Both the position numbers and the translations under genes were made by a program. A DNA stretch of 64,000 nt, taken from NCBI GenBank assembly GCA_964484655.1, contig CAZAFA010000001.1:164742-228741 (forward strand), in the 5' to 3' direction. The notes under the pieces are model-generated. The model ran no database searches, had not been told where the DNA came from, and was given only the letters and a program-made list of their open reading frames with translations. Of the stretch, positions 4,631 through 35,408 are shown piece after piece. Each line of letters opens with the position of its first letter. The first letter of the stretch is position 1. The stretch is from an uncultured Candidatus Saccharibacteria bacterium. Its GTDB lineage: Bacteria; Patescibacteriota; Minisyncoccia; UBA6257; 2-01-FULL-56-20.

Positions 4631-5278
4631 CTAATAGCCGAGCAGGGTACGGATATCAGCTGCGTACGCGATGGCTATAAGCGTCGCGATCATGAACGGG
4701 GCGCCGAGCGTCGTGAGGCTCTTCTTCAGGACGAGCATCCGGAACAGCGAGAGCACGACGAGCGCCACGGCCGCGAGCGGCGCCATGACGAGCGCGTCCG
4801 GCCAGCCGGCCGCGAACACGAGCAGCGCCGTGAGCTCCTGCTCGCCCTCGTCGAGGTAGCGCTCGGACTTCCTCCGGAGCGCGCCCGCGAACGCGTACCA
4901 CAGCCCGGCGAGGACCGTGCCGAGGAAGGGGGCGAGCCAGTAGCGGTCGAGCACGTACGAGACGAAATAGCCGAAGCTCCGATGCGGCGGCAGGAGGAGC
5001 TTGCCGAACGACGAGGCTGCCCAGGCCTGGTATTGCGCCAGCGTCAGGAAGCCGGCGACCAGGACGCTCGCGGCGATCGCCGCGATGCCGATGACGATCA
5101 GAACGCGACGCAGGCGCTCGCTCGGCCTGAGGAGGAGATACGCCGCGATGACGGCCACGGCGACGCCGAGCGAGACCGCCGCGCGCCCGTTGAGGAATAT
5201 CCAGGCCGCCGCGTAGCTCGCGTAGAGGTGATCCATGGCGGCCATTATACCCGAGCCGCATGAAAAGCGAGCCCGCAT
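4631..5278 (-). CDS. polytopic membrane protein, hypothetical
   Basis: multiple hydrophobic helices; no diagnostic motif recognised. Confidence 0.4.
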   Translation of the reverse strand: MRARFSCGSGIMAAMDHLYASYAAAWIFLNGRAAVSLGVAVAVIAAYLLLRPSERLRRVLIVIGIAAIAASVLVAGFLTLAQYQAWAASSFGKLLLPPHRSFGYFVSYVLDRYWLAPFLGTVLAGLWYAFAGALRRKSERYLDEGEQELTALLVFAAGWPDALVMAPLAAVALVVLSLFRMLVLKKSLTTLGAPFMIATLIAIAYAADIRTLLGY

Positions 5279-5305: not shown

Positions 5306-5866
5306 TCATTTGTTTGCGGCGACCAGGCTTGCCAGCCGCTCTTCCTGCACCTGCTTGAGCGCCTGGACGGGCGTCTCGCAGGATTCCGACGGTTCCCAGG
5401 AATTGATCGCGTAGCTCGCGAAGAATTCCTCCTGCAGCGGCGTCTCGTCCTCGACGTAGACGTAGACCTCCGCCCAGCGCGTTCCGAACTGGAGCGCGGA
5501 CCTATGCGACGGGAAGCGGATGTCGAATTGCAGGAGACCCTTCCGGGCCATCTTGCGCATCCCTCCGCCCGTGTCATCCACGATCCGGTACTGATTGGCG
5601 ACGCCCGCGACCGGCACGTACACGTACGATCCGAGAGGGACGAGCCAGTTCGCCGAGGCGACCCCGACCGGCTTCCGGGCATCGGTGCCCATCGCCGTCC
5701 TCTTCGCGGCAGCGTACTTCTCGCAGCACTTGCTGCAGGTGCAGTACGCCGTCAGCTTCGCGCGCACCAGGTGGACCCTGGCATCCTTCCTGACCTGGGC
5801 AGCGGCTGCCCCGGCCAATGCGACCACAATGATTATTCCGAATAAAATATAGTTCCTCGTTCTCAA
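5306..5866 (-). CDS. 3D-domain protein (MltA/YuiC-like cell-wall hydrolase domain) with N-terminal membrane anchor
   Basis: LTAYCTCSKCC...VAGVANQYRIVDDTGGG pattern of the 3D (Asp-Asp-Asp) domain; TTG start preceded by GGGAGG. Confidence 0.6.
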   Translation of the reverse strand: MRTRNYILFGIIIVVALAGAAAAQVRKDARVHLVRAKLTAYCTCSKCCEKYAAAKRTAMGTDARKPVGVASANWLVPLGSYVYVPVAGVANQYRIVDDTGGGMRKMARKGLLQFDIRFPSHRSALQFGTRWAEVYVYVEDETPLQEEFFASYAINSWEPSESCETPVQALKQVQEERLASLVAANK

Positions 5867-5914
5867 AATTCCTTACCTCCCTTTCGTTCTGTCCGCTAAT
5901 TGCTTAGCGGATAT

Positions 5915-5943
5915 ATAATACCATAGATATATTGTTCTGGCAA
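5915..5943 (-). promoter_or_regulatory. sigma70-like promoter TTGCCA-N17-TATTAT for the 3D-domain gene
   Basis: hexamers read on the minus strand in the AT-rich gap between uvrC and the 3D-domain gene. Confidence 0.35.
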
Positions 5944-5949
5944 GATGCT

Positions 5950-7143
5950 TCAGAAGAACATCTCCCTTCCGCGGACCTTCCGATGGTAGGCCACGGCGAA
6001 GCGGTGCGCCTCGTCCCGCACCCTGATCAGGGTCTCCGCCTCTATGGCGTGCGGGATGGCGCCTATGAGGTCGTTACGCTTCCGCTCCGCGCCCTTGGCG
6101 ATGCCGACGACGGGCACCTTCACCTGTCGCTCGGCGAGCAGCCTCCGCACCGCGTGCACCTGCCCCGCTCCCCCGTCGATGAGGAACAGGTCCGGGAGCG
6201 GCCACTCCGGATGGTTCAGGCGCCGGTCCAGGACCTCGACGAGCGACGCGTAGTCGTCCGCCCCCTCGACGCGCCTGATCCGGAACTTCCGGTACTGGCT
6301 CTTGTCCGGCTTCCCGTCCGTGAAGACCACCATGGACCCGACGGACTGGTTGCCCATCGTGTTCGAGATGTCGTACCCCTCGATCCGGACGCTCCGCTCC
6401 CGGTCCCGGCGCACCTCCTCGCGCGTGAGGATCGCGGCGTCGTTGACGTGCTCGAGCTGGAAGAGCATCCGCTTGATGCTCTCGGCCTTCTCGAAGTCGA
6501 GCTTCAGCGCTGCCTGGCGCATCTCGCGCCGCAACTGCGCGATGAGCTGCTTCTGCTTTCCGGCGAGGAAGAGCTCGAGCTTGCGGATGCTCGCGCGGTA
6601 CGTGCGCTTGTCGATCAATCCCGCGCAGGTGCCCGGGCAGAGGCCGATATGGACGTCGAAGCAGGGCCGGTCGCCCGGCTTCCCTGCCGGATGCGTCGCG
6701 TACGGGATGATGCGGCGGATGATGCGCATCCCCTCCTTGATCGAGCGCTCGGCAAGGAACGGGCCGTACCGGCGGCCGCGGATCGGGCTCCTCCCGCGCA
6801 CGAACTGGATGCGCGGGAAGTCCTCGTCCGTCACCTCGACGTAGCAGAAGGACGAGTCGTCCTTCTCCATGATGTTGTAGAAGGGCTGGAACTCCTTGAT
6901 GCGCGCGGCCTCAACGATGAGAGCCTCGAGGGCGCTCCCCGTCCGCTCGATCTCGATGCGGTCCACCTCCTGGACGAGCTGGCTGATGCGCCGATCCTGC
7001 GGGCGCGTGAAGTAGCTGCTGACGCGGCGCTTCAGGTTCACGGCCTTGCCGACGTAGATGACCCTCCCCTTCGCGTCGTACATCTTGTAGACGCCCGGCG
7101 TCGCGGGAAGGTCCTCGAAGAGATGCCTCTTGTCGTCGTTCAC
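5950..7143 (-). CDS. uvrC: excinuclease ABC subunit C, short form (GIY-YIG, UvrB-interaction and endonuclease regions; no C-terminal HhH pair apparent)
   Basis: N-terminal GVYKMYDAKGRVIYVGKAVNLKRRV (GIY-YIG); 397 aa against about 600 typical. Confidence 0.8.
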   Translation of the reverse strand: MNDDKRHLFEDLPATPGVYKMYDAKGRVIYVGKAVNLKRRVSSYFTRPQDRRISQLVQEVDRIEIERTGSALEALIVEAARIKEFQPFYNIMEKDDSSFCYVEVTDEDFPRIQFVRGRSPIRGRRYGPFLAERSIKEGMRIIRRIIPYATHPAGKPGDRPCFDVHIGLCPGTCAGLIDKRTYRASIRKLELFLAGKQKQLIAQLRREMRQAALKLDFEKAESIKRMLFQLEHVNDAAILTREEVRRDRERSVRIEGYDISNTMGNQSVGSMVVFTDGKPDKSQYRKFRIRRVEGADDYASLVEVLDRRLNHPEWPLPDLFLIDGGAGQVHAVRRLLAERQVKVPVVGIAKGAERKRNDLIGAIPHAIEAETLIRVRDEAHRFAVAYHRKVRGREMFF

Positions 7144-7176
7144 GAGGCCAGTGTAGCCGTCCGGGCGGCAGGTCGC

Positions 7177-9738
<2,562 letters not shown>

Positions 9739-9779
9739 CGGGATAGTTCCCGAACTATAGCCTGCAGGCCGTCCGCGGG

Positions 9780-10226
9780 CTAGCGGATGACCCGAACCGT
9801 CTCCCCGATCTCGGCCGAGGGAGCGGAAAGGGTCACCTGGCCGGTACTCGTGCTCCGCGAGACCAGGTAGCCGGTGTCGTAGTCGCTCGGGCTCGCGTAG
9901 CGTCCCGCAGGGTCCTTGGGGTCATAGGGCAGCGCGCTTACGTAGGCCGGCACCAGGCAGGGGCCGATGTCGTAGCCGCCGCTCGCCGCCATGCGGGTCG
10001 GGCTTGCCGGGATCGGCCCAGCAGCGCAGATGAAGCTGCCCGTACCGCTCTCGGCGATGTTCTGGCGAATCGCATTCATGAGTGCCTGGAGATGGAGTTC
10101 TCGCTGCGCGTTGCGCGCGCTCGCGACCTGCCTAAATGGATCCATCGCGACCACGACGATGCCGCCTATCATGGCCAGGATCGCGAGGCTGATGACTATC
10201 TCGATGAGGGTGAGGCCGCGTCGCAT
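9780..10226 (-). CDS. type IV pilin / pseudopilin (prepilin-type N-terminal cleavage/methylation motif)
   Basis: MRRG|[18 protein letters not shown]: cleavage-site Gly, Glu at +5, hydrophobic helix. Confidence 0.7.
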
Positions 10227-10235
10227 GCGCTGAGT

Positions 10236-11654
10236 CTACTCCACTTCTCGCCAGCTGAGCAGCGCGTATTGCTCCGAGGCGAGCGGGAACCCTGGCGGAG
10301 GCGCGTACAGGAGCGAGGCGTCGTAGACGAGGCTGCGTGCCAGATACCCGGTGTTGTCGGTATAGGCGAACCCGTACCGTCCGTTGGTGATGATCGACCC
10401 GTAGCTCGTGAGCTGCGCGCGTACGGCGTTGGTGCCGCAGTAGCTGCTCCCGGAACGGTAGTAGTATCGGCCGGCGCGTCCGTTCTGCGCAACGAGCGCG
10501 GCGTCGATCCTGAGGTCGTCCTCGCTGTAGAGGCCGACGTTGAGATTGTTCTGGGCGATGAGCGCGAGCGCCGCGGATCCGTCGTATGCGGCGTAGGTGA
10601 TATCGCCGTTGACGGTTATGCTCGCGTACGTGGCGCTGCTCGCGGGGAACCTCCCCGCAGCGACCGTGAGATGGCGCCCGGAGACCTGCCCGCTCACCCA
10701 GAGATGGTCCTCCACGAAGATGACGCCGCTTGCCGGCAACGGAGCTCCCGTCGACACCGCGGTCCGGTTCTGCACGCTCCAGGTCCCCCATCCTGCCTGC
10801 GACTGCGAGTTCGTGCAGCCGCTCGGCGGATTCCGGAGCGAGGTCACGCGGTACAGGTCGTAAGTCGAGGCGTGCAGGACCAGCTCGTATCCCTGGCTGC
10901 CGGACGGCCCGACGTACAGCCCGCCCGACTGCGCCGCCGCCTTGAGGTCCGACAGGTCCTGCGTGATACCGGCGAAATCGATAGCCGGGAGCGGGAACTG
11001 GCGACCGCCACGGAAGACGTCCTGGCGGGCGGGCAACGCCGCGTTCGGCAGCGGATCGACCGTTCCGAGGTGGGTATGCACGCCGTACTCGTCGGCGCCC
11101 GCATGATCGGGATCGTCGTAGGTCATCGCCGCGCTCTTGACCGCGTTATGCGCTAGCCCGTCGAAGCGTATGCCGCCGTTGCTGAATATCTCGCCGTAGA
11201 CCTCCGTGCCCTCTCCGAACCGCAGCGCCGCGTTCGCCGCGACCGCGTACCGCGCGAGCGACGGCTTCCCGAGCAGTACCTCGATCACCTTGCGGTTCCC
11301 GCTGTCTCCCGCGACAGAGCCGCTGCTCCTGATGCGAACCATGGACGTGCTGGTCACGGGCGTTATTTCAAGCGAGAACGTGCCGAGGACGCGGCCGTCA
11401 CGGGAACGGTACTCGTGCACGTACGGGCCAGGCTGGCCCGTGCCGTCCTGGTAGTCCGTCGGAGCATGCGCCAGGTGCCAGCGGTAGTACTCGATCCCCG
11501 CCTCGGCGATCGAGAAGGCAAGTGTGCGGTTGAGCTTCCGTGTGCTCAGCTCGAGGAACGAGACCGCGAGGAACGTGAAGCCGGTGATCATGACCACCAC
11601 GACGGCGGCGAGTACGAGGACCTGGAGGCTGACCTGACCGTCCTCCCTATTCAT
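10236..11654 (-). CDS. PilX_N-like minor pilin / pilus-associated protein
   Basis: start taken at MNREDGQ..; N-terminal TM followed by LAFSIAEAGIEYY resembling the PilX N-terminal domain; long Ser/Gly/Thr-rich C-terminal part. Confidence 0.5.
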   Translation of the reverse strand: MNREDGQVSLQVLVLAAVVVVMITGFTFLAVSFLELSTRKLNRTLAFSIAEAGIEYYRWHLAHAPTDYQDGTGQPGPYVHEYRSRDGRVLGTFSLEITPVTSTSMVRIRSSGSVAGDSGNRKVIEVLLGKPSLARYAVAANAALRFGEGTEVYGEIFSNGGIRFDGLAHNAVKSAAMTYDDPDHAGADEYGVHTHLGTVDPLPNAALPARQDVFRGGRQFPLPAIDFAGITQDLSDLKAAAQSGGLYVGPSGSQGYELVLHASTYDLYRVTSLRNPPSGCTNSQSQAGWGTWSVQNRTAVSTGAPLPASGVIFVEDHLWVSGQVSGRHLTVAAGRFPASSATYASITVNGDITYAAYDGSAALALIAQNNLNVGLYSEDDLRIDAALVAQNGRAGRYYYRSGSSYCGTNAVRAQLTSYGSIITNGRYGFAYTDNTGYLARSLVYDASLLYAPPPGFPLASEQYALLSWREVE

Positions 11655-12252
11655 CGCGTAGATTGCGGATGACGACCAGCTGGCTCGCGAACGCCGGTTT
11701 CGGGGCCTCGCGGGGTCGCACATCCACGTAGAACGTGACGCGTACCGCGCGCACGGCGCTTGGCTGCGAAGAGGTCGCCGGCAGCGGATCGCCGACGCCG
11801 GCCTGACCGGCGCCGTAATACGCGAACACCGGCGTGCTCGTCGTGCGCACCAGGTCGGTCATGACCGTCGCGACCTGCTCGCTCGAGGTCGCGTATCCGA
11901 GCGGGCTTCCGCTCGGCTTGATAACGCCGCGGACGAGAGTGCTCGTCCCGACGGCGTAGCGGATGCGCTCGACGAGCCCGTCAGCATCGATGTCGCTATA
12001 GAAGACCAGCGTGCTCGTGCTCGCCGACTCTACCGGAAACGCGCCCTGGCTGCTCGGCGCGGCCGATCGGATCTCGGTGACCATCTGATCGAGCATGATA
12101 TCCAGATCCTGGCGCGACTGCAGCTTCTGCCGCACGAGATTCCCGAGCGTATTGACGTTACCCCGTAGGCTCGCGACGACGAACACGAGCACGGCGAAGA
12201 TCGCTGCGGCTACCAGCAGCTCGATCACGGTGAATCCTGCGCGCTTGTTCAT
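11647..12252 (-). CDS. prepilin-type pseudopilin (minor pilin)
   Basis: MNKRAG|FTVIELLVAAAIFAVL class III signal peptide. Confidence 0.65.
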   Translation of the reverse strand: MNKRAGFTVIELLVAAAIFAVLVFVVASLRGNVNTLGNLVRQKLQSRQDLDIMLDQMVTEIRSAAPSSQGAFPVESASTSTLVFYSDIDADGLVERIRYAVGTSTLVRGVIKPSGSPLGYATSSEQVATVMTDLVRTTSTPVFAYYGAGQAGVGDPLPATSSQPSAVRAVRVTFYVDVRPREAPKPAFASQLVVIRNLRDE

Positions 12253-13964
12253 GACGGCTCGAGGCTAACGGAGACGGTCTTCCATCCGGCGCCGACGGTA
12301 ACCGGCACGCTCGCGGGCTGCCTGCCGGGCGCAGTCACGCTGACCGTGTAGCTCCCGGAAGCCAGGCCTGTGAAGAGCCGCTGTCCTCGCGGTACGCAGG
12401 GGCCAGCGAACTCGAAGGAAACCGCGCTGACGGTCGGGCTCGACGCCGGGCTGTCGGTGCTCAGATAGATGCGGTAGCGCACGTAGCGCTTGCCTTGGAC
12501 TGCCGCCGGCAGCGGGCCCGGGCCCGTGAAGTAGCTGCTCCCGCTTCCGTCAGGCCCGACGTAACTCCATCCCGAGCCGGTATCCGATCCGGCGACCTGG
12601 AACCGGATCGCGTCCGGACCCGATCCGTTCGACTGCCCGCTCCAGGAGAGGTGGGTCGCCGAAGCCGGCGTGCCGCCGAGGTCGATCGCCGCAGACTCGA
12701 GCGTCCCGTCGGTCGAGGTCGCATAAGGGCCTCCCTCAGGCGAGAGCGCAACCTGCGCTCCCGCGATCACCCCGGAAAGGCTCGCGCCGTCCCAGTCGGT
12801 CTCGCGGTAGGTCGCATACGAGGTGCTTGCAGCCGCCGACCCCGCGCCGCTGAGCACTACCATGGCCTCGAGCGGGTCCCCTGTGCCGGCGTCCCGGACC
12901 GTCACCTGGAGGGCCGAGGATGCCGCGGGCGCGAGGATGAAGCGGAAGGATTGCTCGCCGCCAGGCACGATTCCGGCGGGCAGGAGCGGGATCGTGCCTA
13001 CGAGGTCGAGGGATCCCTCGTACGCGAGCGCGTACGAGTCCCATTCCAGCGGGAGGGTCGTGGCGCCGCCGGTCCCGGTGTCTCCTGAGAACGCGTACTT
13101 AGGCACGTCCGGGCTTGTCCCGACGAGCTTGCCGCCAGTGGCGTCGAACGGCTGGCTCGCGATGGCCGTGCAGCGGATGTCGGCGCTGCTCACTGTGACG
13201 TTCGCGAGCAGGTCGATCGCGAAGCTCAGCTCGGTGACCGCCTGAGAACTGACCGTCGCGTGCGGCTTAACCGGGTTCGGATTCCCCGTCCCGCCGGGAG
13301 CATACGTGCGCTCGGACGAATAGCCGTCCTTGGTCACCGCGACCTGATACGCCTGCGTGCTCGTCGGGACGTCGACCAGCTGCAGCCTGCCGCTCGCGTC
13401 CGTGACATCGGTGAAGTCGATCGCAGGCGAAGTCGACGCGTTGACGATGTGCACCGACGCGCCGGGTACGGCATGCCCGTTCGCGTCGAAGACTGAGACG
13501 AAGAGCGACCCGTTGCCGGAAGCGCTCTCGAGCCCGCGCGGCGCGACCGTGGTGGTGATCGCGATCGGCGAGAAGCGTGCGCAGGTTGGGCACGTAGCGG
13601 TCAGCTCCACGAGCTTGTAGTCGGCAGGCGCGGTATCCGCGGGCGTCGAGGTGACCGTCCCGTCGAAAGGATCGTCGACATTCCGGACCGCCGCTTGGAC
13701 GACGAACGTGCTCCCGTTCCAGTCGACCTGCTCGGCCTGGAGCAGGACGCCGGCGGGAATGCCACCCTGCACGCCGACCTGCTCGTACGCGAGCGTGCGC
13801 ACGACCTCCACCCGCTCGGCGAGGATCCCTGCCGCCGCCCTCCGGAGCTCGAAGTTGCTCGCGGTATCGAGGATGGCGAAATAGACGAGGAAGATGCCGC
13901 CGAAGAGCGTGGCGATGATCCCTATGGCGAGGATGAGGTCGACGAGGCTGAATCCGTTCCGCAT
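12249..13964 (-). CDS. large prepilin-type protein with carboxypeptidase-regulatory-like / Thr-rich adhesin-like domains (candidate tip pilin or adhesin)
   Basis: MRNG|FSLVDLILAIGII N-terminus; 571 aa; segment ASVHIVNASTSPAIDFTDVTDASGRLQLVDVP resembles a CarboxypepD_reg fold. Confidence 0.55.
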   Translation of the reverse strand: MRNGFSLVDLILAIGIIATLFGGIFLVYFAILDTASNFELRRAAAGILAERVEVVRTLAYEQVGVQGGIPAGVLLQAEQVDWNGSTFVVQAAVRNVDDPFDGTVTSTPADTAPADYKLVELTATCPTCARFSPIAITTTVAPRGLESASGNGSLFVSVFDANGHAVPGASVHIVNASTSPAIDFTDVTDASGRLQLVDVPTSTQAYQVAVTKDGYSSERTYAPGGTGNPNPVKPHATVSSQAVTELSFAIDLLANVTVSSADIRCTAIASQPFDATGGKLVGTSPDVPKYAFSGDTGTGGATTLPLEWDSYALAYEGSLDLVGTIPLLPAGIVPGGEQSFRFILAPAASSALQVTVRDAGTGDPLEAMVVLSGAGSAAASTSYATYRETDWDGASLSGVIAGAQVALSPEGGPYATSTDGTLESAAIDLGGTPASATHLSWSGQSNGSGPDAIRFQVAGSDTGSGWSYVGPDGSGSSYFTGPGPLPAAVQGKRYVRYRIYLSTDSPASSPTVSAVSFEFAGPCVPRGQRLFTGLASGSYTVSVTAPGRQPASVPVTVGAGWKTVSVSLEPS

Positions 13965-13966
13965 CG

Positions 13967-15031
13967 CTACCTGATGCCCTGCGACAGCGAGTAGATGGGG
14001 AGGATGATCGAGAGCGCGACGAAGCCGACCAGGAGGCCCATCCCGACGAGGAGAATCGGCTCGAGGAGCGCGGTCATCGTCTTCAGGGCCTCGTCCGTCT
14101 CCTCGGTGTAGTGCTCCGAGAGATAGATGAGGTTCCCCTCCAGGTTGCCGGTCTGCTCGCCGATGGTGACGATGCCCGTCATCAGCGGCGGGAATGCGCG
14201 CGGGTAGCGCTCGAGCTCGGCGCCGAGCGATTCCCCCCTACGGATGCCGTCAGCCGCTCTCATGAGCACGTCCTTGTAGACGAGGTTGCTGAAGGTCGCG
14301 CTCGTGACCTGGATGCCCTCGACGATGTGGACGCCGCTCTTGAGGAGGATGCCCAGCACGCGGCTGAAGTTCGCCACGTTGACGTTCATCATGAGCTGCC
14401 CGGTCACGGGAATCCCGAGCAGGAAGCCGTGGAACGCCTTCCGGAACGGCCGCACCCGCGTGAAGAGGAACCGCAGGCCGACGATCGCCGCGATCGCGGC
14501 GAGGCCGCCGACGATGCCGTACTTGGAGAGGACGTCGAGTACGCCGATGAGGATGCGCGTCGTCAGCGGGAGCTGGACGTTGAAACCCGAGAGCACGGGC
14601 AGGATCTTCGGGAAAACGAAGAAGGTGAGGAAGCTGACGACCGCGATCGTGGCAACCAGGAGCACCACCGGATAGATCAGGGCGGAGCGGACCTTCCCCT
14701 GCAGCTCGCGCCCCTTCCTGATCTCGTCGGCGAGGTACGCCAGGTTGTCCCCGAGCGTGCCGCTCGCCTCCCCGACGCGGACGATGTTGGTGAAGAAGTC
14801 CCCGAACAGCTGCGGGAACCGCCCGAGGCTGTCCGCGAGCGGACGGCCCGCGTTGACGTCGGCGACGAGCTGGTCGATGACCGCGCCCAAGGTCTTGCTG
14901 AAGCGCTGGCGGCGGAGCATCTGCAGCCCCTCGAGAAGCGGCAGGCCTGCCCGCACGACCATCGAAAGGTGCCGCGCGAAGGTGATCTTCTCCTGCGTCT
15001 TGAGGCGCGCGAAGCGCGATATCCCGGCCAT
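13967..15031 (-). CDS. pilC: type IV pilus / T2SS platform protein PilC/GspF family
   Basis: two GspF-like repeats with polytopic TM; start placed at MAGISRF.. immediately after the pilB stop. Confidence 0.85.
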   Translation of the reverse strand: MAGISRFARLKTQEKITFARHLSMVVRAGLPLLEGLQMLRRQRFSKTLGAVIDQLVADVNAGRPLADSLGRFPQLFGDFFTNIVRVGEASGTLGDNLAYLADEIRKGRELQGKVRSALIYPVVLLVATIAVVSFLTFFVFPKILPVLSGFNVQLPLTTRILIGVLDVLSKYGIVGGLAAIAAIVGLRFLFTRVRPFRKAFHGFLLGIPVTGQLMMNVNVANFSRVLGILLKSGVHIVEGIQVTSATFSNLVYKDVLMRAADGIRRGESLGAELERYPRAFPPLMTGIVTIGEQTGNLEGNLIYLSEHYTEETDEALKTMTALLEPILLVGMGLLVGFVALSIILPIYSLSQGIR

Positions 15032-15033
15032 GG

Positions 15034-16269
15034 TCAGTCGAAGATGATGCGGATGACCTCCTCGATCGAGGTCAGGCCTGCGGCCGCCTTCTCGGCGCCG
15101 TCGCGCATCATGGTCTTCATCCCCTCCTCCACGGCCTTCTTCTTGATGTCTGCGGCTGACGCGCGCTCGAGCACCAGGTGCTGGATCGCCGGCGTCATGG
15201 GAAGCACCTCGCGGATGCCGATGCGTCCGCGGTAACCGGTTCCGTGGCACTTCTCGCAGCCGCGCGGCGCCCAGAGCTGCTCGAGATCCTCGTGGCGCAC
15301 GTCGCCCCCGAAAAGCTCAAGGAGGCTGGCCCGCTCCTTCTCCGTCACCGGCCTGATCACCTTGCACGCGTCGCAGAGTGTGCGGACCAGCCGCTGCCCC
15401 ATCGCGATGTTGACCGTCGACGCGACCAGGAAGGGCGGCACGCCCATGTCGATCAGGCGCGGGAAGGTCGTCGCCGCGTCGTTAGTGTGCAGGGTGGAGA
15501 GCACGAGGTGGCCAGTGAGCGCCGCATTCACGGCGATGCCTGCCGTCTCCTCGTCGCGGATCTCGCCCACCATGAGGATGTTCGGGTCCTGACGGAGGAT
15601 ACTGCGGAGCCCCGACGCGAAGGTGAAGCCCACCTGCTGGTTCGTCTGCATCTGCGTCACTCCCTCGAGCGCGTACTCGATCGGGTCCTCGATGGTTATG
15701 ATCGAGCGGTCCGGCTGGTTGAGCTCCTTGAGGATCGTGTAGAGGGTGGTCGTCTTGCCGGATCCGGTAGGCCCGTTGGCGAGGATCATGCCGTAGGGCC
15801 GCATGATCGCGCGCCGTACGCGCGCGAGAGCGTCAGACTGGAAGCCGAGCGACTCGAGCGTGAAGGCCTCGCTCTCGGCAAGGATGCGCAGCACCGCGTT
15901 CTCGCCGTGGTACGTCGGCGCGATGGAGACGCGGACGGCGAGGTCGATGCCCTCGAAGGCCACCTTGAGGCGCCCGTCCTGCGGCACGAGGTGCTCGTCC
16001 GTGCGCAGGCCGCACATGACTTTGATGCGGCTGACGACCTCCTCGTGAAGCTCCTTCGGGAGCCCCTCACCGAGCGCGTCCTGGAGCATGCCGTCGATGC
16101 GGAAGCGGAGGCGCACCTTGTCCTTCTCCGGCTCGATATGAACGTCCGACGCCTGTGTGGCATAGGCGAACTCGACGATGAGGTCGACGAGCGCGACGAT
16201 GGAGACCTCGCCGTGGGCGCGGTTCAGCGCATCAACGAAGGCGGACTTGATCTCCTCGGGATCGCGCAT
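15034..16269 (-). CDS. pilB: type IV pilus assembly ATPase PilB/GspE family, short form
   Basis: Walker A GPTGSGKTTT, Asp box, His box and tetracysteine CDACK...CEKCHGTGYRGR typical of PilB/GspE; 411 aa. Confidence 0.88.
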   Translation of the reverse strand: MRDPEEIKSAFVDALNRAHGEVSIVALVDLIVEFAYATQASDVHIEPEKDKVRLRFRIDGMLQDALGEGLPKELHEEVVSRIKVMCGLRTDEHLVPQDGRLKVAFEGIDLAVRVSIAPTYHGENAVLRILAESEAFTLESLGFQSDALARVRRAIMRPYGMILANGPTGSGKTTTLYTILKELNQPDRSIITIEDPIEYALEGVTQMQTNQQVGFTFASGLRSILRQDPNILMVGEIRDEETAGIAVNAALTGHLVLSTLHTNDAATTFPRLIDMGVPPFLVASTVNIAMGQRLVRTLCDACKVIRPVTEKERASLLELFGGDVRHEDLEQLWAPRGCEKCHGTGYRGRIGIREVLPMTPAIQHLVLERASAADIKKKAVEEGMKTMMRDGAEKAAAGLTSIEEVIRIIFD

Positions 16270-16483
16270 GGATGCGCCCAGTATAGCACTGCGCCGCGAC
16301 GCCGCGCCGCTCAGATACCGAGGAGCGCCCTGCTCGCCGTGGCGAACCGGTTGGCGCCTCGGCTGAGGCTTGCGCTGATGAGGAATATGCGGATCGGCAT
16401 AGCTCGAGGATGAGCTGCTCCGATGAAACCCTCGTGAAGGAGCCCTTCACCCCACCGCCATCGCCTTTCGTTACTCTGGCCGC

Positions 16484-16669
16484 ATGAGAAAGGTCGGCAC
16501 CAGACAACACACCATGAACGCGCCGCGTTACAACACCTGGGAGGAGCTCCATCGCCTCACCCGCACCGTCGAGTGGGATCTGATGGGCGAGCAGTTCCCG
16601 AGGATCAAGAACTGGCCATCGCGATCCCGCACGAAGCCGCTGAAGTTCCGCCGCGATCTCTACGAGTGA
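16484..16669 (+). CDS. possible small protein, hypothetical
   Basis: 61 aa with unbiased composition in the pilB-regulator intergenic region; followed by a hairpin; no clear RBS. Confidence 0.2.
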   Translation: MRKVGTRQHTMNAPRYNTWEELHRLTRTVEWDLMGEQFPRIKNWPSRSRTKPLKFRRDLYE

Positions 16670-16767
16670 TCGCGCACCGCTTACCAAGCAGAGCAACCAC
16701 CCCCAGTCGCCCTCACCGGCTGGGGGTTCATCTCGCGTTCATGAAAACGGGTGTATGGTATGTCCAT

Positions 16768-17439
16768 ATGCGCCTCCTCATCATCGAAGATGATGCTGCA
16801 ATCGCGTTCTCGGTGAAGAACGCGCTGGAAAGCCAGGGATACGCCGTCGACCACCTCCCGGACGGCGAGCGCGGAGCGCAGCGGCTCGGGCTCTATCACG
16901 AGTCCTACGACGCGGTCGTTCTCGATGTGTCCCTTCCCGGCAAGAGCGGGATAGTGGTATGCCGCGAGGCGCGTCAGCGAGGCATCACCACCCCTGTTCT
17001 CATGCTGACCGGCCTCGACGGAGTCGAGGACCGCGTGCACGGGCTCGACGCGGGCGCCGACGACTACCTCGTGAAGCCTTTCGCCCTCGACGAGCTGCTC
17101 GCGCGCCTGCGCGCGCTCACCCGCCGCCAACCTCTCGTGCACGGTACCGAGCTCGCGGCTGGGCCGCTCAGGCTCAACACGGCCACCCGCCGCGTCACAG
17201 CCTGCGGCGAAGATCTCAATCTCACTCTGAAGGAGTTCGCCGTCCTCGAATACCTGCTCCGTCATGCCGGGAAGGTAGTCAGCCGCGAGGAGCTGATCGA
17301 CCACGCCTGGGACTTCAACGGCGGCACCTTCAGCAACACCGTCGACGTTCATGTCAGCCGCATCCGCCGGAAGCTCGGAGATGCCGCTGCCTGCCTCGAA
17401 TCCATCAAGGGCGTCGGTTACCGCCTTTCCGAGGTATGA
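16768..17439 (+). CDS. OmpR-family two-component response regulator
   Basis: receiver domain MRLLIIEDD...D..LPG..G...L.TA... plus winged-helix region (LTLKEFAVLEYLLRHAGKVVSREEL...GYRL). Confidence 0.88.
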   Translation: MRLLIIEDDAAIAFSVKNALESQGYAVDHLPDGERGAQRLGLYHESYDAVVLDVSLPGKSGIVVCREARQRGITTPVLMLTGLDGVEDRVHGLDAGADDYLVKPFALDELLARLRALTRRQPLVHGTELAAGPLRLNTATRRVTACGEDLNLTLKEFAVLEYLLRHAGKVVSREELIDHAWDFNGGTFSNTVDVHVSRIRRKLGDAAACLESIKGVGYRLSEV

Positions 17440-19268
17440 AGCGGCTCTATCGAATCCAGCAGAATGACCTGCCGATCGATAGCCTCACCTTCATCAGCGA
17501 GGCCACCGACGGTCTCGTCGTTCTCGATGGAAGTTGGCGCTACATCTACGTAAACGAGCCTGCCGCTCAGCTTTCCGGCCATGTCGCCTCCGAGCTTCTC
17601 GACCGCAGCGCTATCGAGGTACATCCGGACTTCGAGAACACGATATTCTTCCAGCATTACGCGGCGGCGCGCGCTGAGAACAGGGTGCAGCGCTTCGAGT
17701 TCTACTATCCACATCTGGAGCGGTGGTACACCATCACCGTCTATCCTAGCCCTGACCAGCGCCTCTTCATCTATTTCTCTGATATCACGCCCTGGAAGAG
17801 GAAGGAGGAGCAGCTCAGGCTCCTCGTCGACAACATCGAGGCCCACGCGATCTGCATGCTGAGTCCCGAGGGCACCATAATCCGCTGGAACCCCGGCGCG
17901 CAGCAGCTGTTCGGCTATACAAGCGAGGAGGCGGAGGGCAAGCACCTTTCCATGCTCTACCTGCCCGAGCATCGTCGGGAGGGCCAGCCGCTCCTCGCGC
18001 TCGCCGACGCGGCCGAGAACGGACGCCACGTGGCGCAGGGCTGGCAGAGCAGGCGACGCGGGCGCTTCTGGTCCCATTATTCGCTCAGCGCGATCAGGGA
18101 CAGCGACGGCGTGCTCGTCGGATTCACCCTGGTAGCCCAGGACCGTACCGTACCCTACACGACCAGGCTCGCCCTCGAGGAGCGGACGGCGCAGCTCGAG
18201 CGCGAGAAGGCGAAGGCCGATGCGCTCCTGAGCAGCATCGGCGAAGGCGTCATCGCCACCGACGGCGAAGGCAAGATCGTACTCTTCAATCCGCAAGCGG
18301 AGCGCATGACGCATGTCTCAGAGAAGGAAGCCCTGGGAAGACACTACGGACGCGTCATGAAGATCGAGGCCGAGGACGGCACGCGCATCCCTGAGGAGGA
18401 AACCGCCTTAGGCAAGACGCTCGCTACCGGGAAGAAGCACGAGAGCCCGCCTGGTCGCTACTTCGTTCCCCGCTACGGGAACCGCTTCCCGGTCGTGGTG
18501 TCGGCCAACCCTCTGGTCCTCGACGGCGAGCTGACAGGCGTGATCGCCGTGCTCCGGAACGTGACCAAGGAGCACGATGCCGATCGCGCCAAGAGCGAGT
18601 TCGTGTCGCTGGTCTCGCATCAGCTCCGCACGCCGCTCACGGCGATGAAGCTCCTCGGCGACCTGCTCGCGAAGGAGACCGTGGGTTCCCTTTCCGAGCA
18701 GCAGCTCCAGATCGTCGGCCGCATGAACGAATCCACGGAAAAGATGATCGCGCTGGTCAACGCTTTGCTCAACGTCTCGCGGATCGAGAACTCCACCCTC
18801 ACCGCGAACCTCGTCACTGCCGACTTCAGCGATGTCGTGGACGAGGTGATCTCCGAGCTCCGTCCGCTCATCCGGATGCGCCAGCTCGTGCTGCGCTATA
18901 CCCCGCTGAAGGGAGAGGCCCCGGTCACAACCGATCCCGGCCTGCTCCGCCAGGTGGTCGCGAACGTCGTCAGCAACGCTATCCAATATTCCCCGCGCCG
19001 CAAGCATCTCGAGATCGAGGTCCGCAAGAAGGGGTCGTCCTACGTCCTTTCCGTCCGCGACTGGGGCATCGGCATCCCGGAGGACATGCGCGACCGCGTC
19101 TTCGCCCGTTTCTTCCGATCACCTGGCGCCGTGAAGCACAAGCCGGACGGCACCGGCCTGGGCCTCTATCTCTCGCACAAGATCATGGAGCTCCTCGGCG
19201 GCCGTATCTGGTTCAAGCCCGGCGAGGGCGGCGGCACCGTCTTCAATGTCAGCCTACCCGCTCAGTGA
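17436..19268 (+). CDS. cytoplasmic PAS-domain sensor histidine kinase
   Basis: ATGA overlap with the regulator; PAS-like repeats; H-box EFVSLVSHQLRTPLTAM; HATPase N, G1 and G2 boxes (DWGIGIP, GTGLGL); no TM segment. Confidence 0.85.
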   Translation: MKRLYRIQQNDLPIDSLTFISEATDGLVVLDGSWRYIYVNEPAAQLSGHVASELLDRSAIEVHPDFENTIFFQHYAAARAENRVQRFEFYYPHLERWYTITVYPSPDQRLFIYFSDITPWKRKEEQLRLLVDNIEAHAICMLSPEGTIIRWNPGAQQLFGYTSEEAEGKHLSMLYLPEHRREGQPLLALADAAENGRHVAQGWQSRRRGRFWSHYSLSAIRDSDGVLVGFTLVAQDRTVPYTTRLALEERTAQLEREKAKADALLSSIGEGVIATDGEGKIVLFNPQAERMTHVSEKEALGRHYGRVMKIEAEDGTRIPEEETALGKTLATGKKHESPPGRYFVPRYGNRFPVVVSANPLVLDGELTGVIAVLRNVTKEHDADRAKSEFVSLVSHQLRTPLTAMKLLGDLLAKETVGSLSEQQLQIVGRMNESTEKMIALVNALLNVSRIENSTLTANLVTADFSDVVDEVISELRPLIRMRQLVLRYTPLKGEAPVTTDPGLLRQVVANVVSNAIQYSPRRKHLEIEVRKKGSSYVLSVRDWGIGIPEDMRDRVFARFFRSPGAVKHKPDGTGLGLYLSHKIMELLGGRIWFKPGEGGGTVFNVSLPAQ

Positions 19269-19635
19269 CCGCACCGTGCTCGTCGCAGAGGACGAGCAGG
19301 ACATTGCCGAGGCCTACCGGCTCTTCCTCGAGTCGAACGGCTTCCCGGTGAAGGTAGTCGCGGACGGCCGAATGGCCATCAGGGAGGCGCGCACCGGGAA
19401 TTATGACGTAATGCTCCTCGACCTCCTCATGCCCCACAAGAACGGGTTCGAGGTTCTCGAGGCGCTGAATAGGCTCGGCATGACGGAGCGGATATCGATC
19501 ATCGTCGTCTCGAACCTGAGCCAGCCGGCTGACGCGCTTCGTTGCAAGGAGCTCGGCGCGGCGGAGTACGAGGTCAAGTCGAACATATCGCTCGACGATC
19601 TCTTGAAGAAGATACGCAAGCACGCCCGACGTTGA
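19246..19635 (+). CDS. stand-alone CheY-like receiver domain protein
   Basis: 129 aa; VLVAEDEQD...MLLDLLMP...receiver pattern; overlaps the kinase 3' end. Confidence 0.75.
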   Translation: MSAYPLSDRTVLVAEDEQDIAEAYRLFLESNGFPVKVVADGRMAIREARTGNYDVMLLDLLMPHKNGFEVLEALNRLGMTERISIIVVSNLSQPADALRCKELGAAEYEVKSNISLDDLLKKIRKHARR

Positions 19636-19656
19636 TTCCCTTAACAGTGGCTTCAT

Positions 19657-19685
19657 GCAGTCCTCGTATGCTGGACGAGGACTGC
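19657..19685 (+). terminator. perfect 11-bp stem, 7-nt loop hairpin after the receiver gene (no U-tract)
   Basis: gcagtcctcgt atgctgg acgaggactgc read directly from the sequence. Confidence 0.3.
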
Positions 19686-19772
19686 TAGCCGCGCACCTGC
19701 GGCCTGGCAATGGGATCGGAGAAACATCCGCGAGTTGCATCGTAGCTGCAGCGCGCGACCACACTGCCAAAC

Positions 19773-20423
19773 ATGACCCTACGTAAACTCCTTACCTCGG
19801 TACTTGGACTGGTCCTCATCGTCGGTCCTGAGCTCGCACATGCAGAAGTCACGCAGCCAGGTTCGCCGCGCCTGGTGATCAGGCGTGCCGTACCTACCTC
19901 GACGGCTGATTACTATCATCGCATCGCCCACCAGGAGGTGACCGTGCTCAATCTCGGCGACGGCATCGCGAAGGGCGTGGTCCTTCACGATGTGATCTCC
20001 AAGCCGAACGGCGAGATCGTGCACGATGAGCCGTGGGAGATCGGCACGATGGCTCCGGGAGAAGGCGCGACGCTTACCTATGACGTCGCGTTCTCCATGC
20101 TCGCGCCCTCCGGCTCGTACAGCGTCGTAGCCCAAGTACAGGCTGAGAGCGGCGTTGCCGCCATGGTGGTCGGCATCATCGAGGTCCTGCCCTCCTCACT
20201 GTCACGAGCAGGCCGTGAGCATGCTGAAATCGAGCTTGCGAGTAGAGAGCCTGACGAGGGCGTGGCGTATGCGGCAACCGGCAGCGGTAATGACGGTCAT
20301 CCCCGTCCCCCGCTCCCCTCTTCGACAATGACACCTCTCCTGTTCTTCCTCGGGGCAGTCCTCTGCGCTCTGGGCGTCAGGATCCTGCGCAACGAAGGAT
20401 CCGTGGGCGGTCAGGCATCCTGA
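19773..20423 (+). CDS. secreted DUF11-like (conserved-repeat) domain protein with C-terminal TM anchor
   Basis: signal peptide; EVTVLNLGDGIAKGVVLHDVI...GEGATLTYDV pattern; C-terminal hydrophobic helix. Confidence 0.5.
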   Translation: MTLRKLLTSVLGLVLIVGPELAHAEVTQPGSPRLVIRRAVPTSTADYYHRIAHQEVTVLNLGDGIAKGVVLHDVISKPNGEIVHDEPWEIGTMAPGEGATLTYDVAFSMLAPSGSYSVVAQVQAESGVAAMVVGIIEVLPSSLSRAGREHAEIELASREPDEGVAYAATGSGNDGHPRPPLPSSTMTPLLFFLGAVLCALGVRILRNEGSVGGQAS

Positions 20424-34122: not shown

Positions 34123-34615
34123 GGCGCAATGGTACCACCTCGCCCGGCGGCGGCGCATGCGGCGCGTGCTCCGCGCAGAGGAATTCCTGGTTCCTGACGA
34201 TGAAGGCGGCTGCGGCACGCCCGCATGCCGTGCAGGAGGCGTGCCGCGGGTCCCAGCCGAGCGCGACGAGCGCCGCGCTCCAGTCCATGCGGCTCGCGGT
34301 AGCGATCCTCCAGACCTCGGGCTCGGAGACATGCTCGGGAAGCAGCCGGTCCAGGAGCAGGCACTCCCCGAGATCGCGGACGGACTCCTTGATGGTGAGC
34401 GCGTCGCCGACGCGGATGTCGCGCTGCTCGATCAGGCGCACGGATACCACGCTTCCTTCAAGGAGATGCGGGCCGAGGCGCGAGGTGATCTTCCGTCCCG
34501 ACACGACGGTGGCGTGGAGCCTCCCGAGCTCCTCGGCGAAGAGCGAGACGCGCAGGTCGGCCTCCCCCTGCGGGTAGCGCGCGAGCACGAGCGCGCGGGT
34601 CACCGGTTCGTGCAT
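34109..34615 (-). CDS. recO: DNA repair protein RecO (short)
   Basis: N-terminal OB-fold pattern RALVLARYPQGEADLRVSLFAEELGRL...GRKITSRL; C-terminal C-x2-C...C zinc motif. Confidence 0.6.
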   Translation of the reverse strand: MHEPVTRALVLARYPQGEADLRVSLFAEELGRLHATVVSGRKITSRLGPHLLEGSVVSVRLIEQRDIRVGDALTIKESVRDLGECLLLDRLLPEHVSEPEVWRIATASRMDWSAALVALGWDPRHASCTACGRAAAAFIVRNQEFLCAEHAPHAPPPGEVVPLRHGRS

Positions 34616-34662: not shown

Positions 34663-35322
34663 TCATTCCTGTCTCGCCTCCTGTCTTTTCTCGAGGATGC
34701 CGAGCATCTGTTCCGTGATCGCGTCACGCTCCTGGGTGCCGTCTATGACGTGATACTGCCAGCCCAGGATCGATGGCGCCTGGAGATACCGGCTGCGCCG
34801 CTGGACGTACTCGTCGAGTCCCGCGCGATCGAAGTGATTCGTCGTCCGCGCGATGTCGTCCGATACGCCATGGACACGCCGGAGCGCGACCTCGGGCGGC
34901 ACGTCTATGACGAACAGCTCGCGCGGGATCCATCGCAGCATCTCAATCACGACCCGGCTCACCTCGAGGATCCGCTCGGCGGTCAGCCCGTACTGCGTCT
35001 GATAGACCAGCGTCGAGACGATCGAGCGATCGGCTATGACGCTTCTCCCTGCGTTCACGGCCGGCTCGACGACGGTCCTCATCAGGTACTCGCGCTGGAG
35101 CGTGAACATCAGCAGCATCTCCTCGCTGTTGAGCCGCACGTCGTCAGCGAGCAGGATCTGCCGAAGATGCATGCCCATCGGCGTGCCTCCGGGTTCGGCG
35201 ACCTTGACGTAGCCTGATTCTTCACCGCCGAGCCTCTCGAAGAGGCGCTCGACCTGGGTCGTCTTTCCGACCCCGTCCATTCCCTCGACGATGATCAGGC
35301 GACCTAGCTTATGTATGGCCAT
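34663..35322 (-). CDS. tmk: thymidylate kinase
   Basis: IIVEGMDGVGKTT P-loop; DR lid region; start at MAIHKLG.. (219 aa). Confidence 0.85.
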   Translation of the reverse strand: MAIHKLGRLIIVEGMDGVGKTTQVERLFERLGGEESGYVKVAEPGGTPMGMHLRQILLADDVRLNSEEMLLMFTLQREYLMRTVVEPAVNAGRSVIADRSIVSTLVYQTQYGLTAERILEVSRVVIEMLRWIPRELFVIDVPPEVALRRVHGVSDDIARTTNHFDRAGLDEYVQRRSRYLQAPSILGWQYHVIDGTQERDAITEQMLGILEKRQEARQE

Positions 35323-35408
35323 TGAGCCACCTCCTATTCGATTTTGCTTTGCCGAGGCCACCATAGAGCAATGCCCCGGACTCGTGAAGAGCCGGGGCAT
35401 CGTTTCGT

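Follow-up and report, generated by a model that had tools for sequence, protein, structure and literature searches.

A conserved six-gene cassette of Parcubacteria for a probable minimal type IV pilus with two large minor pilins

The locus and its gene products

On the minus strand at positions 9780-16269 of the 64-kb window, by which we mean the whole stretch of DNA that was analysed, lies the six-gene pilus locus that had been proposed from the sequence alone; all six genes are present, with matches far beyond chance. The cassette and the two genes downstream of it are as follows (a slash in a motif marks the cleavage position).

15034..16269, minus strand: assembly ATPase of the PilB/GspE family, 411 aa (Pfam T2SSE, motifs)
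13967..15031, minus strand: PilC/GspF-type membrane platform protein, 354 aa (Pfam T2SSF, twice)
12249..13964, minus strand: modular minor pilin, 571 aa (G/FSLVD, CarboxypepD_reg)
11647..12252, minus strand: small minor pilin, 201 aa, in a GspJ/PilA2-like position (G/FTVIE, N_methyl)
10236..11654, minus strand: putative cap or tip minor pilin, 472 aa, ComZ/GspK-like ([KR]-G N-terminus, structure model)
9780..10226, minus strand: probable shaft (major) pilin, 148 aa (G/LTLIE, N_methyl)
7177-9738, co-directional with the cassette: uvrA
5950-7143, co-directional with the cassette: short uvrC, 397 aa

All six cassette reading frames are intact and coding-type (GC3 0.83-0.91). The sequence-only reading was right that the genes are co-directional and run into uvrA and uvrC, but the uniform overlaps of 1-4 nt that it described do not hold: the successive junctions measure +2, +2, -4 (overlap), -8 (overlap) and +9 nt, and a gap of +41 nt precedes uvrA. 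The PilC start at 15031 agrees with the gene calls on identical contigs, and the pilin earlier given as 473 aa has its ATG at 11654, which makes it 472 aa, the same length as in the gene calls of identical Logan contigs.

The ATPase matches Pfam T2SSE over residues 20-407 (E 1.4e-121). Its translation shows Walker A (GPTGSGKTT), Walker B (ILMVGEIRD) and the tetracysteine motif (CDAC...CEKC) as well as the Asp and His boxes; the Walker and Zn motifs and the His box are intact. It consists of the N2 domain and the C-terminal domain with the tetracysteine Zn motif; the N1 (T2SSE_N/MshEN) domain is absent, with no N-terminal Pfam match, and the alignments begin at position 94 of the GspE model and position 170 of the PilB model. 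Taken together, model and PDB alignments place its start at about PilB residue 170-183. Among the 120 nearest homologues nearly all have about 410-415 aa and carry PF00437 only, and to judge from these sequences the N1-less form is the norm for the family. Phmmer searches of the PDB gave 369 bits for PilB, 341 for PilF, 332 for GspE, 116 for PilT and 51 for FlaI, whereas the NCBIfam models gave 502.6 for GspE and 469 for PilB, both below the equivalog cutoffs (630.25 for GspE). On these scores the protein belongs to the PilB/GspE assembly clade, as had been supposed. A Tad or archaellum ATPase was rejected, with only 51.3 bits for TadA and 61.5 for FlaI on the NCBIfam models. The platform protein, likewise recognized earlier, contains two T2SSF stretches (E 3.3e-59) and aligns to GspF positions 58-401, with 287.5 bits against an equivalog cutoff of 424.

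A six-frame regex scan of the whole window found exactly three class III prepilin motifs, namely those of the 571-, 201- and 148-aa genes. Three of the four class III signal peptides previously read here are thereby upheld, while the 472-aa protein keeps the [KR]-G but lacks the E5. In its family the N-terminus is a conserved cleavage-type motif, [KR]-G/Q-x-S-L-Q, which lacks E5 as GspK does, and a PilX_N-like alpha1 helix with AEAGIEYYRW is present. The structure model predicts a small pilin sheet into which a large, triangular beta-solenoid of the ice-binding type is inserted, as in ComZ-like tip pilins. In sequence no homology to ComZ is detectable (15% identity), and a search of the PDB with the 472-aa profile gave no match. 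The protein is acidic (pI 5.8). Pfam has no model for its family, which falls into at least 1,448 clusters when grouped at 50% identity.

In the 571-aa protein the class III signal is followed by an alpha1 helix, although the threshold of the N_methyl model is not reached; among 44 relatives G(-1) is retained in 42, and at +5 there is E in 22 of them and D in 21. Of the modules described earlier, the carboxypeptidase-regulatory-like one is clear (CarboxypepD_reg, residues 156-220, E 2.8e-13) and the Thr-rich one is weak, with 9.1% Thr overall and a single local enrichment, where 10 of the 40 residues around 103-142 are Thr. The protein has four invariant Cys and a pI of 4.5. Its model suggests that CnaB/transthyretin-like beta-sandwiches and a jelly-roll extend from a pilin head of the GspI type, and this extension looks like an adhesin stalk by resemblance of fold. 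Structural matches of the two large models include GspK, XcpX and GspI. Structure prediction thus bears out the view of both large proteins as pilins with bulky extra domains; in the proposal that they are candidate tip adhesins, the word adhesin stands for fold resemblance alone. Each of the two is a full-length, single-architecture family.

The two small pilins both pass N_methyl and TIGR02532. For the 201-aa protein (N_methyl 28.6 bits against a cutoff of 21.2, E 9.5e-7) there are weak N-terminal matches to GspI (1.4e-5) and GspJ (2e-4), and PDB profile matches reach the first 30 residues or so; the sole longer one, to TTHA1219, extends to residue 66 and is non-significant (E 0.18). A loop DxDxDGxxE at residues 87-95 is invariant in five orthologues and is a possible Ca2+ site. 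The 148-aa protein (N_methyl 22.9 bits against 21.2, E 6.1e-5; TIGR02532 21.4 bits against 16.3) has one Cys pair, C67 and C90, and an N-terminal helix like that of T4a major pilins. A profile of its orthologues, over positions 5-84, matches Geobacter PilA (3.4e-8) and PAK pilin (4e-4); GspG gives only 19 bits (E 9.8e-4; cutoff 88.9). Probably it is the shaft pilin; it may also act as a PilE-like adaptor joining the tip to the shaft.

Conservation and relation to known filaments

Metagenome-assembled genomes of Ca. Liptonbacteria and other Parcubacteria contain these six genes too, with order and sizes preserved. The encoded proteins have 411-356-587-201-477-165 aa in a Ca. Liptonbacteria locus (L025), 410-356-576-195-481-145 aa in L027 and 412-355-579-203-473-148 aa in L028, and the gene order and sizes are the same in L030. 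Across these four loci identities range from 37 to 79%. For L025, L027 and L030, identity to the window is 64/61/55% for the ATPase, 58/55/53% for the 472-aa protein, 51/50/44% for PilC and 46/42/39% for the 571-aa protein; the putative cap is thus conserved about as strongly as the motor. The cassette is a conserved unit and no oddity of one genome. A further locus, L002, holds a different T4P cluster with a PilM/N-like gene and a giant 1,434-aa pilin unrelated to the large pilins of the cassette. That cluster ends in duplicated pilins, to which the 148-aa protein is homologous.

A Pfam scan of 57 further ORFs of the window, ten of which were re-scanned at E<=10, gave no match to Peptidase_A24, PilT, PilM/N/O or a secretin, in agreement with the absences reported earlier, including that of an outer-membrane secretin near the ATPase. 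Among the ORFs scanned, T2SSE was confined to the 411-aa ATPase, and GspD, GspC, GspL and GspM were not found. Neither the window nor the +/-10 kb flanks of L025, L027, L028 and L030 yielded a prepilin peptidase, comEC, comEA or dprA. Homologues and syntenic loci belong to Patescibacteria/Parcubacteria (Ca. Liptonbacteria, Ryanbacteria, Paceibacterota). Together with the clade of the ATPase and the missing secretin, this supports the earlier notion of a stripped-down pilus of PilB, PilC and pilins from a reduced-genome, monoderm-type lineage. In CPR bacteria, which lack an outer membrane and PilQ and do not make nucleotides, T4P and ComEC are widespread, the latter being reported in 86% of genomes (PMC6744442). 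The cassette is therefore a variant of a system type already known from CPR.

Its ATPase, platform and class III pilins are those of the type IV filament (T4P/T2SS/Com) superfamily. Of the canonical type IVa pilus, PilM/N/O, PilT and PilQ are missing from the scanned ORFs of the window, and the ATPase lacks the N-terminal domain of PilB. The architecture is that of the Firmicutes ComG operon (comGA-GB-GC-GD-GE-GF-GG), likewise a single operon in a monoderm-type envelope with an N1-less ATPase, a platform protein of about 330-350 aa and a few pilins, and with no PilM/N/O, PilT or secretin; the peptidase gene lies elsewhere, as it presumably does for the cassette. The N-terminally trimmed PilC aligns end to end with ComGB (positions 2-330 of 332) and the ATPase spans ComGA positions 3-266 of 267. 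Yet the scores, 139.1 and 240.9 bits, are below the equivalog cutoffs of 240 and 300 and below those obtained with the PilB/GspE and GspF models. Unlike in ComG, the probable major pilin comes last instead of first, and two minor pilins are very large in comparison with ComGD-GG.

Thermus thermophilus offers a second parallel. Its locus order, which we take to be pilA1-pilA2-pilA3-comZ-pilA4, also places a cap gene (ComZ, PDB 6QVI) amid small pilin genes, followed by the fibre pilin. The comZ locus has five ORFs including pilA1-3, PilA4 is the fibre pilin, the tip pilin ComZ binds DNA together with PilA2, and PilT, absent from the cassette, is dispensable for competence (PMC6561018). On the other hand, DNA binding is known for ComZ, whereas the likeness of the 472-aa protein comes from its model; Thermus is a diderm and has PilQ, PilMNO and PilF, a large ATPase of several domains; and nothing in it corresponds to the 571-aa stalk pilin. 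Compared with the T2SS tip GspI-GspJ-GspK (PDB 3CI0), the predicted insertion in the cap is a beta-solenoid instead of the alpha-helical domain of GspK, and the GspI-like protein has about 430 extra residues. Of the T4aP core minor pilins (FimU-PilVWX, PilE), a GspH/FimU equivalent is lacking, as are the secretin, GspL and GspM; like PilE, the last small pilin could link tip and shaft. The T4P-1 and T4P-2 of Saccharibacteria TM7x also come from a CPR lineage and combine elaborate minor pilins with a small major one. The largest of the minor pilins, PilX1 and PilX2, do without a canonical PilD signal; beta-rich accessory domains sit at their C-terminal ends, and a role as tip adhesins has been proposed for them (PMC11623550). 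Those accessory folds are a beta-jelly-roll and a 7-bladed propeller, against the beta-solenoid and CnaB stalk predicted here; TM7x also encodes PilT proteins, and from genome to genome the Parcubacteria cassette varies far less.

Possible functions of the cassette

In our preferred reading the cassette encodes a self-contained, Com-like minimal T4P of an ultra-small Parcubacteria (Patescibacteria/CPR) cell, with an I/J/K-like tip that captures DNA. A prepilin peptidase encoded elsewhere would cleave the four pilins, the 472-, 201- and 571-aa proteins would form a GspK/J/I-like priming complex that ends up at the tip, and ATPase and PilC would polymerise the 148-aa pilin beneath it. As with Com pili, the cassette contributes neither PilM/N/O nor PilT of its own, and the filament would pass through an envelope that has no outer membrane. 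The tip may then capture an extracellular ligand, with some surface attachment possibly contributed by the 571-aa stalk. Since the modelled cap is ComZ-like, ATPase and platform are trimmed like ComGA and ComGB, and the cap is conserved at the level of the motor, a universal ligand would be favoured; DNA is the most likely one, serving competence and the scavenging of nucleotides. The assembly machine itself is very likely. It is the DNA-capture role that brings our confidence in the whole down to a little short of an even chance; the failure to find prepilin peptidase, comEC, comEA or dprA genes in the window or beside the four related loci, the acidity of both large proteins, the unattained ComGA/ComGB cutoffs, the higher scores of other models and the possible adaptor role of the 148-aa protein also count against this reading.

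The same machine might primarily serve attachment to a host cell by an episymbiont; the stalk and/or the solenoid cap would then be lectin-like adhesins, a role also put forward for PilX1 and PilX2. We consider this a plausible option, though not a probable one. The predicted beta-sandwiches and jelly-roll resemble adhesins of Gram-positive pili, and pili are thought central to CPR-host contact (PMC6744442). Moreover, PilX2 of TM7x, a large minor pilin that lacks a canonical PilD signal, is needed for host binding and not for competence (PMC11623550). The only Saccharibacteria pilus with a large PilX-type pilin to have been tested thus serves host binding rather than competence, which also speaks against our preferred reading. 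Host-specific adhesins usually vary fast; the cap, however, is conserved like the motor across divergent Parcubacteria, both large proteins keep a single architecture, in contrast to the unrelated giant pilin of L002, and PilT for retraction or twitching is absent from the window. DNA capture would be as live a function as adhesion.

A T2SS-like pseudopilus, i.e. a short GspE-driven piston that pushes proteins through the wall with no external pilus, would agree with the slightly best NCBIfam scores on GspE and GspF, the NCBI annotation of homologues as GspE/PulE family protein, the I/J/K-like minor pilins with their GspK, XcpX and GspI matches, and the lack of PilT. We regard it as improbable: the GspE and GspF scores fall short of equivalog level, single-sequence PDB scores prefer PilB, the GspL-binding N1 domain is absent along with GspD and GspC/L/M, the lineage has no outer membrane (PMC6744442), bulky ligand-binding-type tip domains would be superfluous for a piston, and the 148-aa profile fits T4a major pilins rather than GspG. 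Still far less probable is a decaying or non-functional locus, left over from a fuller T4P cluster after the loss of PilM/N/O, PilT and the N-terminus of its ATPase. The shortened ATPase and PilC and the several canonical partners missing within 64 kb could be read in this way, but the six ORFs and the Walker, His-box and Zn motifs are intact, and trimmed forms and gene order are kept across many genomes, so that this explanation is close to refuted.

Returning to DNA capture, a bolder version, which we find possible but doubtful, is that the 472-aa family is the pilus-tip DNA receptor of Parcubacteria and that the cassette is a dedicated DNA-scavenging organelle, distinct from the variable, PilM-containing adhesion pili of other CPR loci. 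If this is true, CPR cells that are auxotrophic for nucleotides could use the cassette to feed on DNA from the environment or from a host. The ComZ-like 472-aa protein, conserved as strongly as the motor, offers a testable lead on how these bacteria may capture DNA or hosts.

Gene content of the cassette

On the minus strand at 9780–16269, six ORFs with a GC3 of coding type (0.83–0.91) are tightly packed, followed on the same strand by two uvr genes:

15034–16269, minus strand: ATPase, 411 aa (Pfam T2SSE at residues 20–407, E 1.4e-121)
13967–15031, minus strand: PilC, 354 aa (two T2SSF stretches, E 3.3e-59)
12249–13964, minus strand: stalk pilin, 571 aa (N-terminus MRNG/FSLVD)
11647–12252, minus strand: pilin, 201 aa (motif G/FTVIE)
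10236–11654, minus strand: putative cap protein, 472 aa (ATG at 11654)
9780–10226, minus strand: pilin, 148 aa (motif G/LTLIE)
7177–9738, minus strand: uvrA, 41 nt past the cassette end
5950–7143, minus strand: short uvrC, 33 nt beyond uvrA

The sequence-only reading had proposed a six-gene operon with overlaps of 1–4 nt throughout. All six ORFs are indeed present, but the junctions are, in order, +2, +2, −4, −8 and +9 nt, and the product counted as 473 aa has 472, since its ATG lies at 11654 and not at 11657. A computed scan of 5800–17000 for promoters and terminators gave nothing exceeding the shuffled expectation; by eye only, a −10-like box (TGcTATACT) can be seen about 10 nt 5' of the ATPase ATG.

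A six-frame regex scan of the 64 kb returned only three prepilin motifs, those of the 571-, 201- and 148-aa genes, and the 201- and 148-aa proteins pass the N_methyl and TIGR02532 cutoffs. In Pfam scans, 57 other ORFs of the window proved to be housekeeping and envelope genes only, with no match to Peptidase_A24, PilT, PilM/N/O or secretin, in agreement with the earlier claim that prepilin peptidase and these other components are absent from the window. Downstream of uvrC are encoded a 186-aa TM-anchored protein (5306–5866, minus strand), which shows a weak 3D-domain match (E 0.0032) and may be a cell-wall hydrolase, and a 215-aa five-TM protein without family assignment (4631–5278, minus strand). 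The latter was considered as a divergent prepilin peptidase and rejected, having no GxGD motif and no A24 match at E ≤ 10.

The assembly motor

In the translated ATPase, Walker A (GPTGSGKTT), Walker B (ILMVGEIRD), the His box and the tetracysteine motif (CDAC...CEKC) are all readable, and Pfam detects no N-terminal domain of the T2SSE_N type (N1).

Table. Scores of the 411-aa ATPase in bits (NCBIfam; PDB phmmer)
GspE: 502.6; 332
PilB: 468.7; 369
Thermus PilF: –; 341
ComGA: 240.9; –
PilT: 178.7; 116
FlaI: 61.5; 51
TadA: 51.3; –

Judged by this ranking of HMM and PDB scores, a proxy for a labelled phylogeny in which every NCBIfam score lies under its equivalog cutoff, it falls among the assembly ATPases of the PilB/GspE clade, as either a PilB- or a GspE-type enzyme, and not with the Tad, archaellum or PilT ATPases. 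The alignment to PilB begins at about residue 170–183, and PilC aligns with GspF from position 58 and with ComGB end to end (positions 2–330 of 332). By architecture, if not by score, the two motor proteins are trimmed in the manner of ComGA and ComGB. Absence of N1 is the norm of the family, since nearly all of the nearest 120 homologues are about 410–415 aa long with PF00437 as their only domain.

Divergently upstream of the ATPase, a two-component set (16768–19635, plus strand) comprises an OmpR-type regulator, a PAS histidine kinase and a REC-only protein. The last (19246–19635, plus strand) is 35% identical (E 8e-28) to the product of a REC-only gene (9020–9427) situated directly upstream of pilB in a different, larger type IV pilus (T4P) cluster, locus L002. 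In one related cassette, that of L030, the ATPase has 577 aa with an N-terminal REC domain, and its gene comes after those of a kinase and a REC protein (L030 5166–8906); such a fusion is rare, being found in none of the 120 nearest ATPases. These neighbours and the fusion hint that the pilus motor is under phospho-control.

Pilins, putative cap protein and their conservation

The family of the 571-aa protein comprises at least 276 full-length proteins of about 570–620 aa in Patescibacteria, many of which reach N_methyl. Gly at −1 is kept in 42 of 44 members, position +5 is Glu in 22 and Asp in 21, and four cysteines (C125, C128, C265, C523) are invariant. The protein had been called adhesin-like, with Thr-rich modules. 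At fold level the label is right, because Foldseek returns the Gram-positive pilus and adhesin stalks TIE, PitA, SpaA, BcpA and SdrD; the Thr-rich module is poorly founded.

Along its N-terminal helix, the profile of the 148-aa family matches T4a major pilins (Geobacter PilA, 3.4e-8; PAK pilin, 4e-4), and the protein shares homology with the duplicated pilins that close the L002 cluster. On these sequence matches we interpret it as the pilin of the shaft, although it might instead act as a PilE-like adaptor. The 201-aa protein has no match past the N-terminal helix in sequence-level PDB searches. Its family carries a DxDxDGxxE loop (residues 87–95, window 11986–12012), invariant in all five orthologues, which we take to resemble, at motif level only, the nine-residue Ca2+-binding loop of PilY1 and integrins.

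The 472-aa protein has no Pfam or NCBIfam match, and its family appears in databases only as 'hypothetical protein', without a domain model. The family is nevertheless large: the top 120 matches are full-length at 54–76% identity, and a profile search reaches 1,448 representative clusters at E ≤ 1e-3, of which 364 also pass E ≤ 1e-30. The structure prediction called for earlier is confident (AF2, pLDDT 88.2, pTM 0.81), giving a helix (4–63), a four-stranded sheet (78–129) and then a long beta-rich domain. At sequence level no link to ComZ, the tip DNA receptor of Thermus thermophilus, was found, and PDB searches with the profile returned nothing past N-terminal helices. A (K/R)-G site at the N-terminus is retained by 33 of the 35 close relatives and by 94 of the 108 deeper ones. 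Position +5 holds Gln or Glu among the former and a hydrophobic residue among the latter, so the protein lacks the prepilin E5, as would be expected for a first (top) subunit. A His/Asp cluster (DPDH, VHTH, 181–195) was rejected as a family-wide catalytic or metal site: it is subclade-specific and not conserved in 107 deeper relatives, in which only structural G/W/P residues are kept at ≥90%. The 472-aa protein, with its solenoid-pilin fold, is a candidate ComZ-like cap and member of a tip complex.

The six genes recur in four related loci in identical order and with near-identical sizes (ATPase to 148-aa pilin):

L025, Ca. Liptonbacteria GCA_016204385.1: 411-356-587-201-477-165 aa
L027, JGI 521-kb contig: 410-356-576-195-481-145 aa
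L028, ENA 146-kb contig: 412-355-579-203-473-148 aa
L030, JGI 271-kb contig: 577-358-587-197-474-146 aa

Table. Identity of the window proteins to their counterparts (L025; L027; L030)
ATPase: 64%; 61%; 55%
472-aa protein: 58%; 55%; 53%
PilC: 51%; 50%; 44%
148-aa pilin: 47%; 49%; 38%
571-aa pilin: 46%; 42%; 39%
201-aa pilin: 48%; 38%; 37%

Such conservation, equal to that of the motor, in a putative surface-exposed tip protein speaks for a core function in priming or for a ligand of universal kind, and against a host-specific receptor.

The flanks vary by lineage, with uvrA and uvrC downstream only in the close relative L028. A functional coupling of the cassette to these genes was therefore rejected, other neighbours being found in L025, L027 and L030, and the adjacency is synteny by descent. 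UvrC (397 aa) comprises GIY-YIG, UVR and RNase H-like domains, the C-terminal (HhH)2 region being absent; UvrA has 853 aa, and the L028 counterparts after the cassette (14879–19827) are likewise short (UvrC 396 aa, UvrA 853 aa). Neighbours elsewhere include a 2,710-aa RHS/YD-repeat SpvB-type toxin-like protein (L028 1–3208) and, right after the shaft pilin, Pro/Thr-rich secreted proteins in L030 (549 aa, 14411–17685 region) and L025 (324 aa, 14316–15290). In the same L030 region a VKOR gene lies two to three genes downstream, in keeping with the pairs of cysteines that the pilins conserve.

An identical 7.6-kb contig occurs in Logan run SRR11845619, and the best ATPase match among genome contigs is 52% identical. 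Named homologues belong to Ca. Liptonbacteria, Ryanbacteria, Yanofskybacteria, Paceibacterota and 'Patescibacteria group', and so fall within the Parcubacteria group of Patescibacteria. The window GC (about 62–72%, mean about 66%) is unusually high for a Patescibacteria genome; the tokens 56–60 in some Liptonbacteria bin names presumably fill a %GC slot by naming convention. Housekeeping proteins are of reduced size, as is typical of CPR (EF-Ts 150 aa, 46178–46630; AlaRS 626 aa, 37614–39494; UvrC). Probable surface proteins are two with DUF11 repeats (216 aa, 19773–20423, plus strand; 654 aa, 32368–34332, minus strand) and one of 304 aa (63062–63976, minus strand) with a weak Ig-like (Big_13) match and a C-terminal TM anchor. 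A 561-aa ORF (35409–37094, minus strand) with two Thy1 (ThyX) stretches far exceeds normal ThyX length, possibly through fusion or duplication of a thymidylate synthase; it adjoins genes for thymidylate kinase and a RecO_N protein, in a stretch that includes 34663–35499 (minus strand).

Proposed working and significance

The components, their modelled folds and the constant order of the genes are established, and the following working can be envisaged. The pilins would be cleaved by a peptidase encoded elsewhere, and the cap, 201-aa and 571-aa proteins would assemble as a priming complex resembling GspK/J/I and come to lie at the tip. Beneath it, ATPase and PilC would polymerise the 148-aa pilin through an envelope without an outer membrane, which is consistent with the reported absence of PilQ in CPR (PMC6744442).

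The tip would capture a universal ligand, most likely DNA. We favour this function because the cap is ComZ-like, the machine is trimmed in the manner of Com systems, the window ORFs scanned include no PilT, which is dispensable for Thermus competence (PMC6561018), and CPR are nucleotide auxotrophs with widespread ComEC (PMC6744442). The main rival is host adhesion, for which the adhesin-like 571-aa stalk speaks, as does the precedent of PilX2 in Saccharibacteria, which serves host binding and not competence (PMC11623550); the motor-level conservation of the cap argues against a host-specific receptor. A T2SS-like piston, for which the ATPase could be of GspE type, is unlikely, no secretin match having been found among the window ORFs scanned; a decayed remnant is likewise unlikely for genes that recur in constant order.

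The enrichment of T4P and competence genes among CPR is well documented (PMC6744442), and Saccharibacteria have been the subject of work on large minor pilins of non-canonical type (PMC11623550). A fuller T4P version from the same radiation is the L002 cluster, with full-length PilB (561 aa), PilC (407 aa), a pilin, a 1,434-aa pilin, a pilin, PilX-like and PilM/N-like proteins and two terminal pilins, compared to which the present cassette is smaller and N1-less. What appears to be new is the N1-less six-gene Parcubacteria cassette and the ComZ-like nature of the unannotated cap family, as no description of either was found in the literature and a search for ComZ with Patescibacteria gave nothing relevant.

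Patescibacteria make up a large part of bacterial diversity, lack nucleotide synthesis and live on other cells. To our knowledge, how they seize DNA or hosts is largely unknown except in a few cultured Saccharibacteria. In this cassette the Parcubacteria have a pilus module that is small and strongly conserved, and whose candidate tip complex is defined. Its ComZ-like cap and its stalk pilin lend themselves to expression and are specific proteins on which DNA capture can be tested against adhesion in uncultured Parcubacteria. If the cap binds DNA, a receptor so far known from Thermus alone would extend to a huge uncultured radiation.
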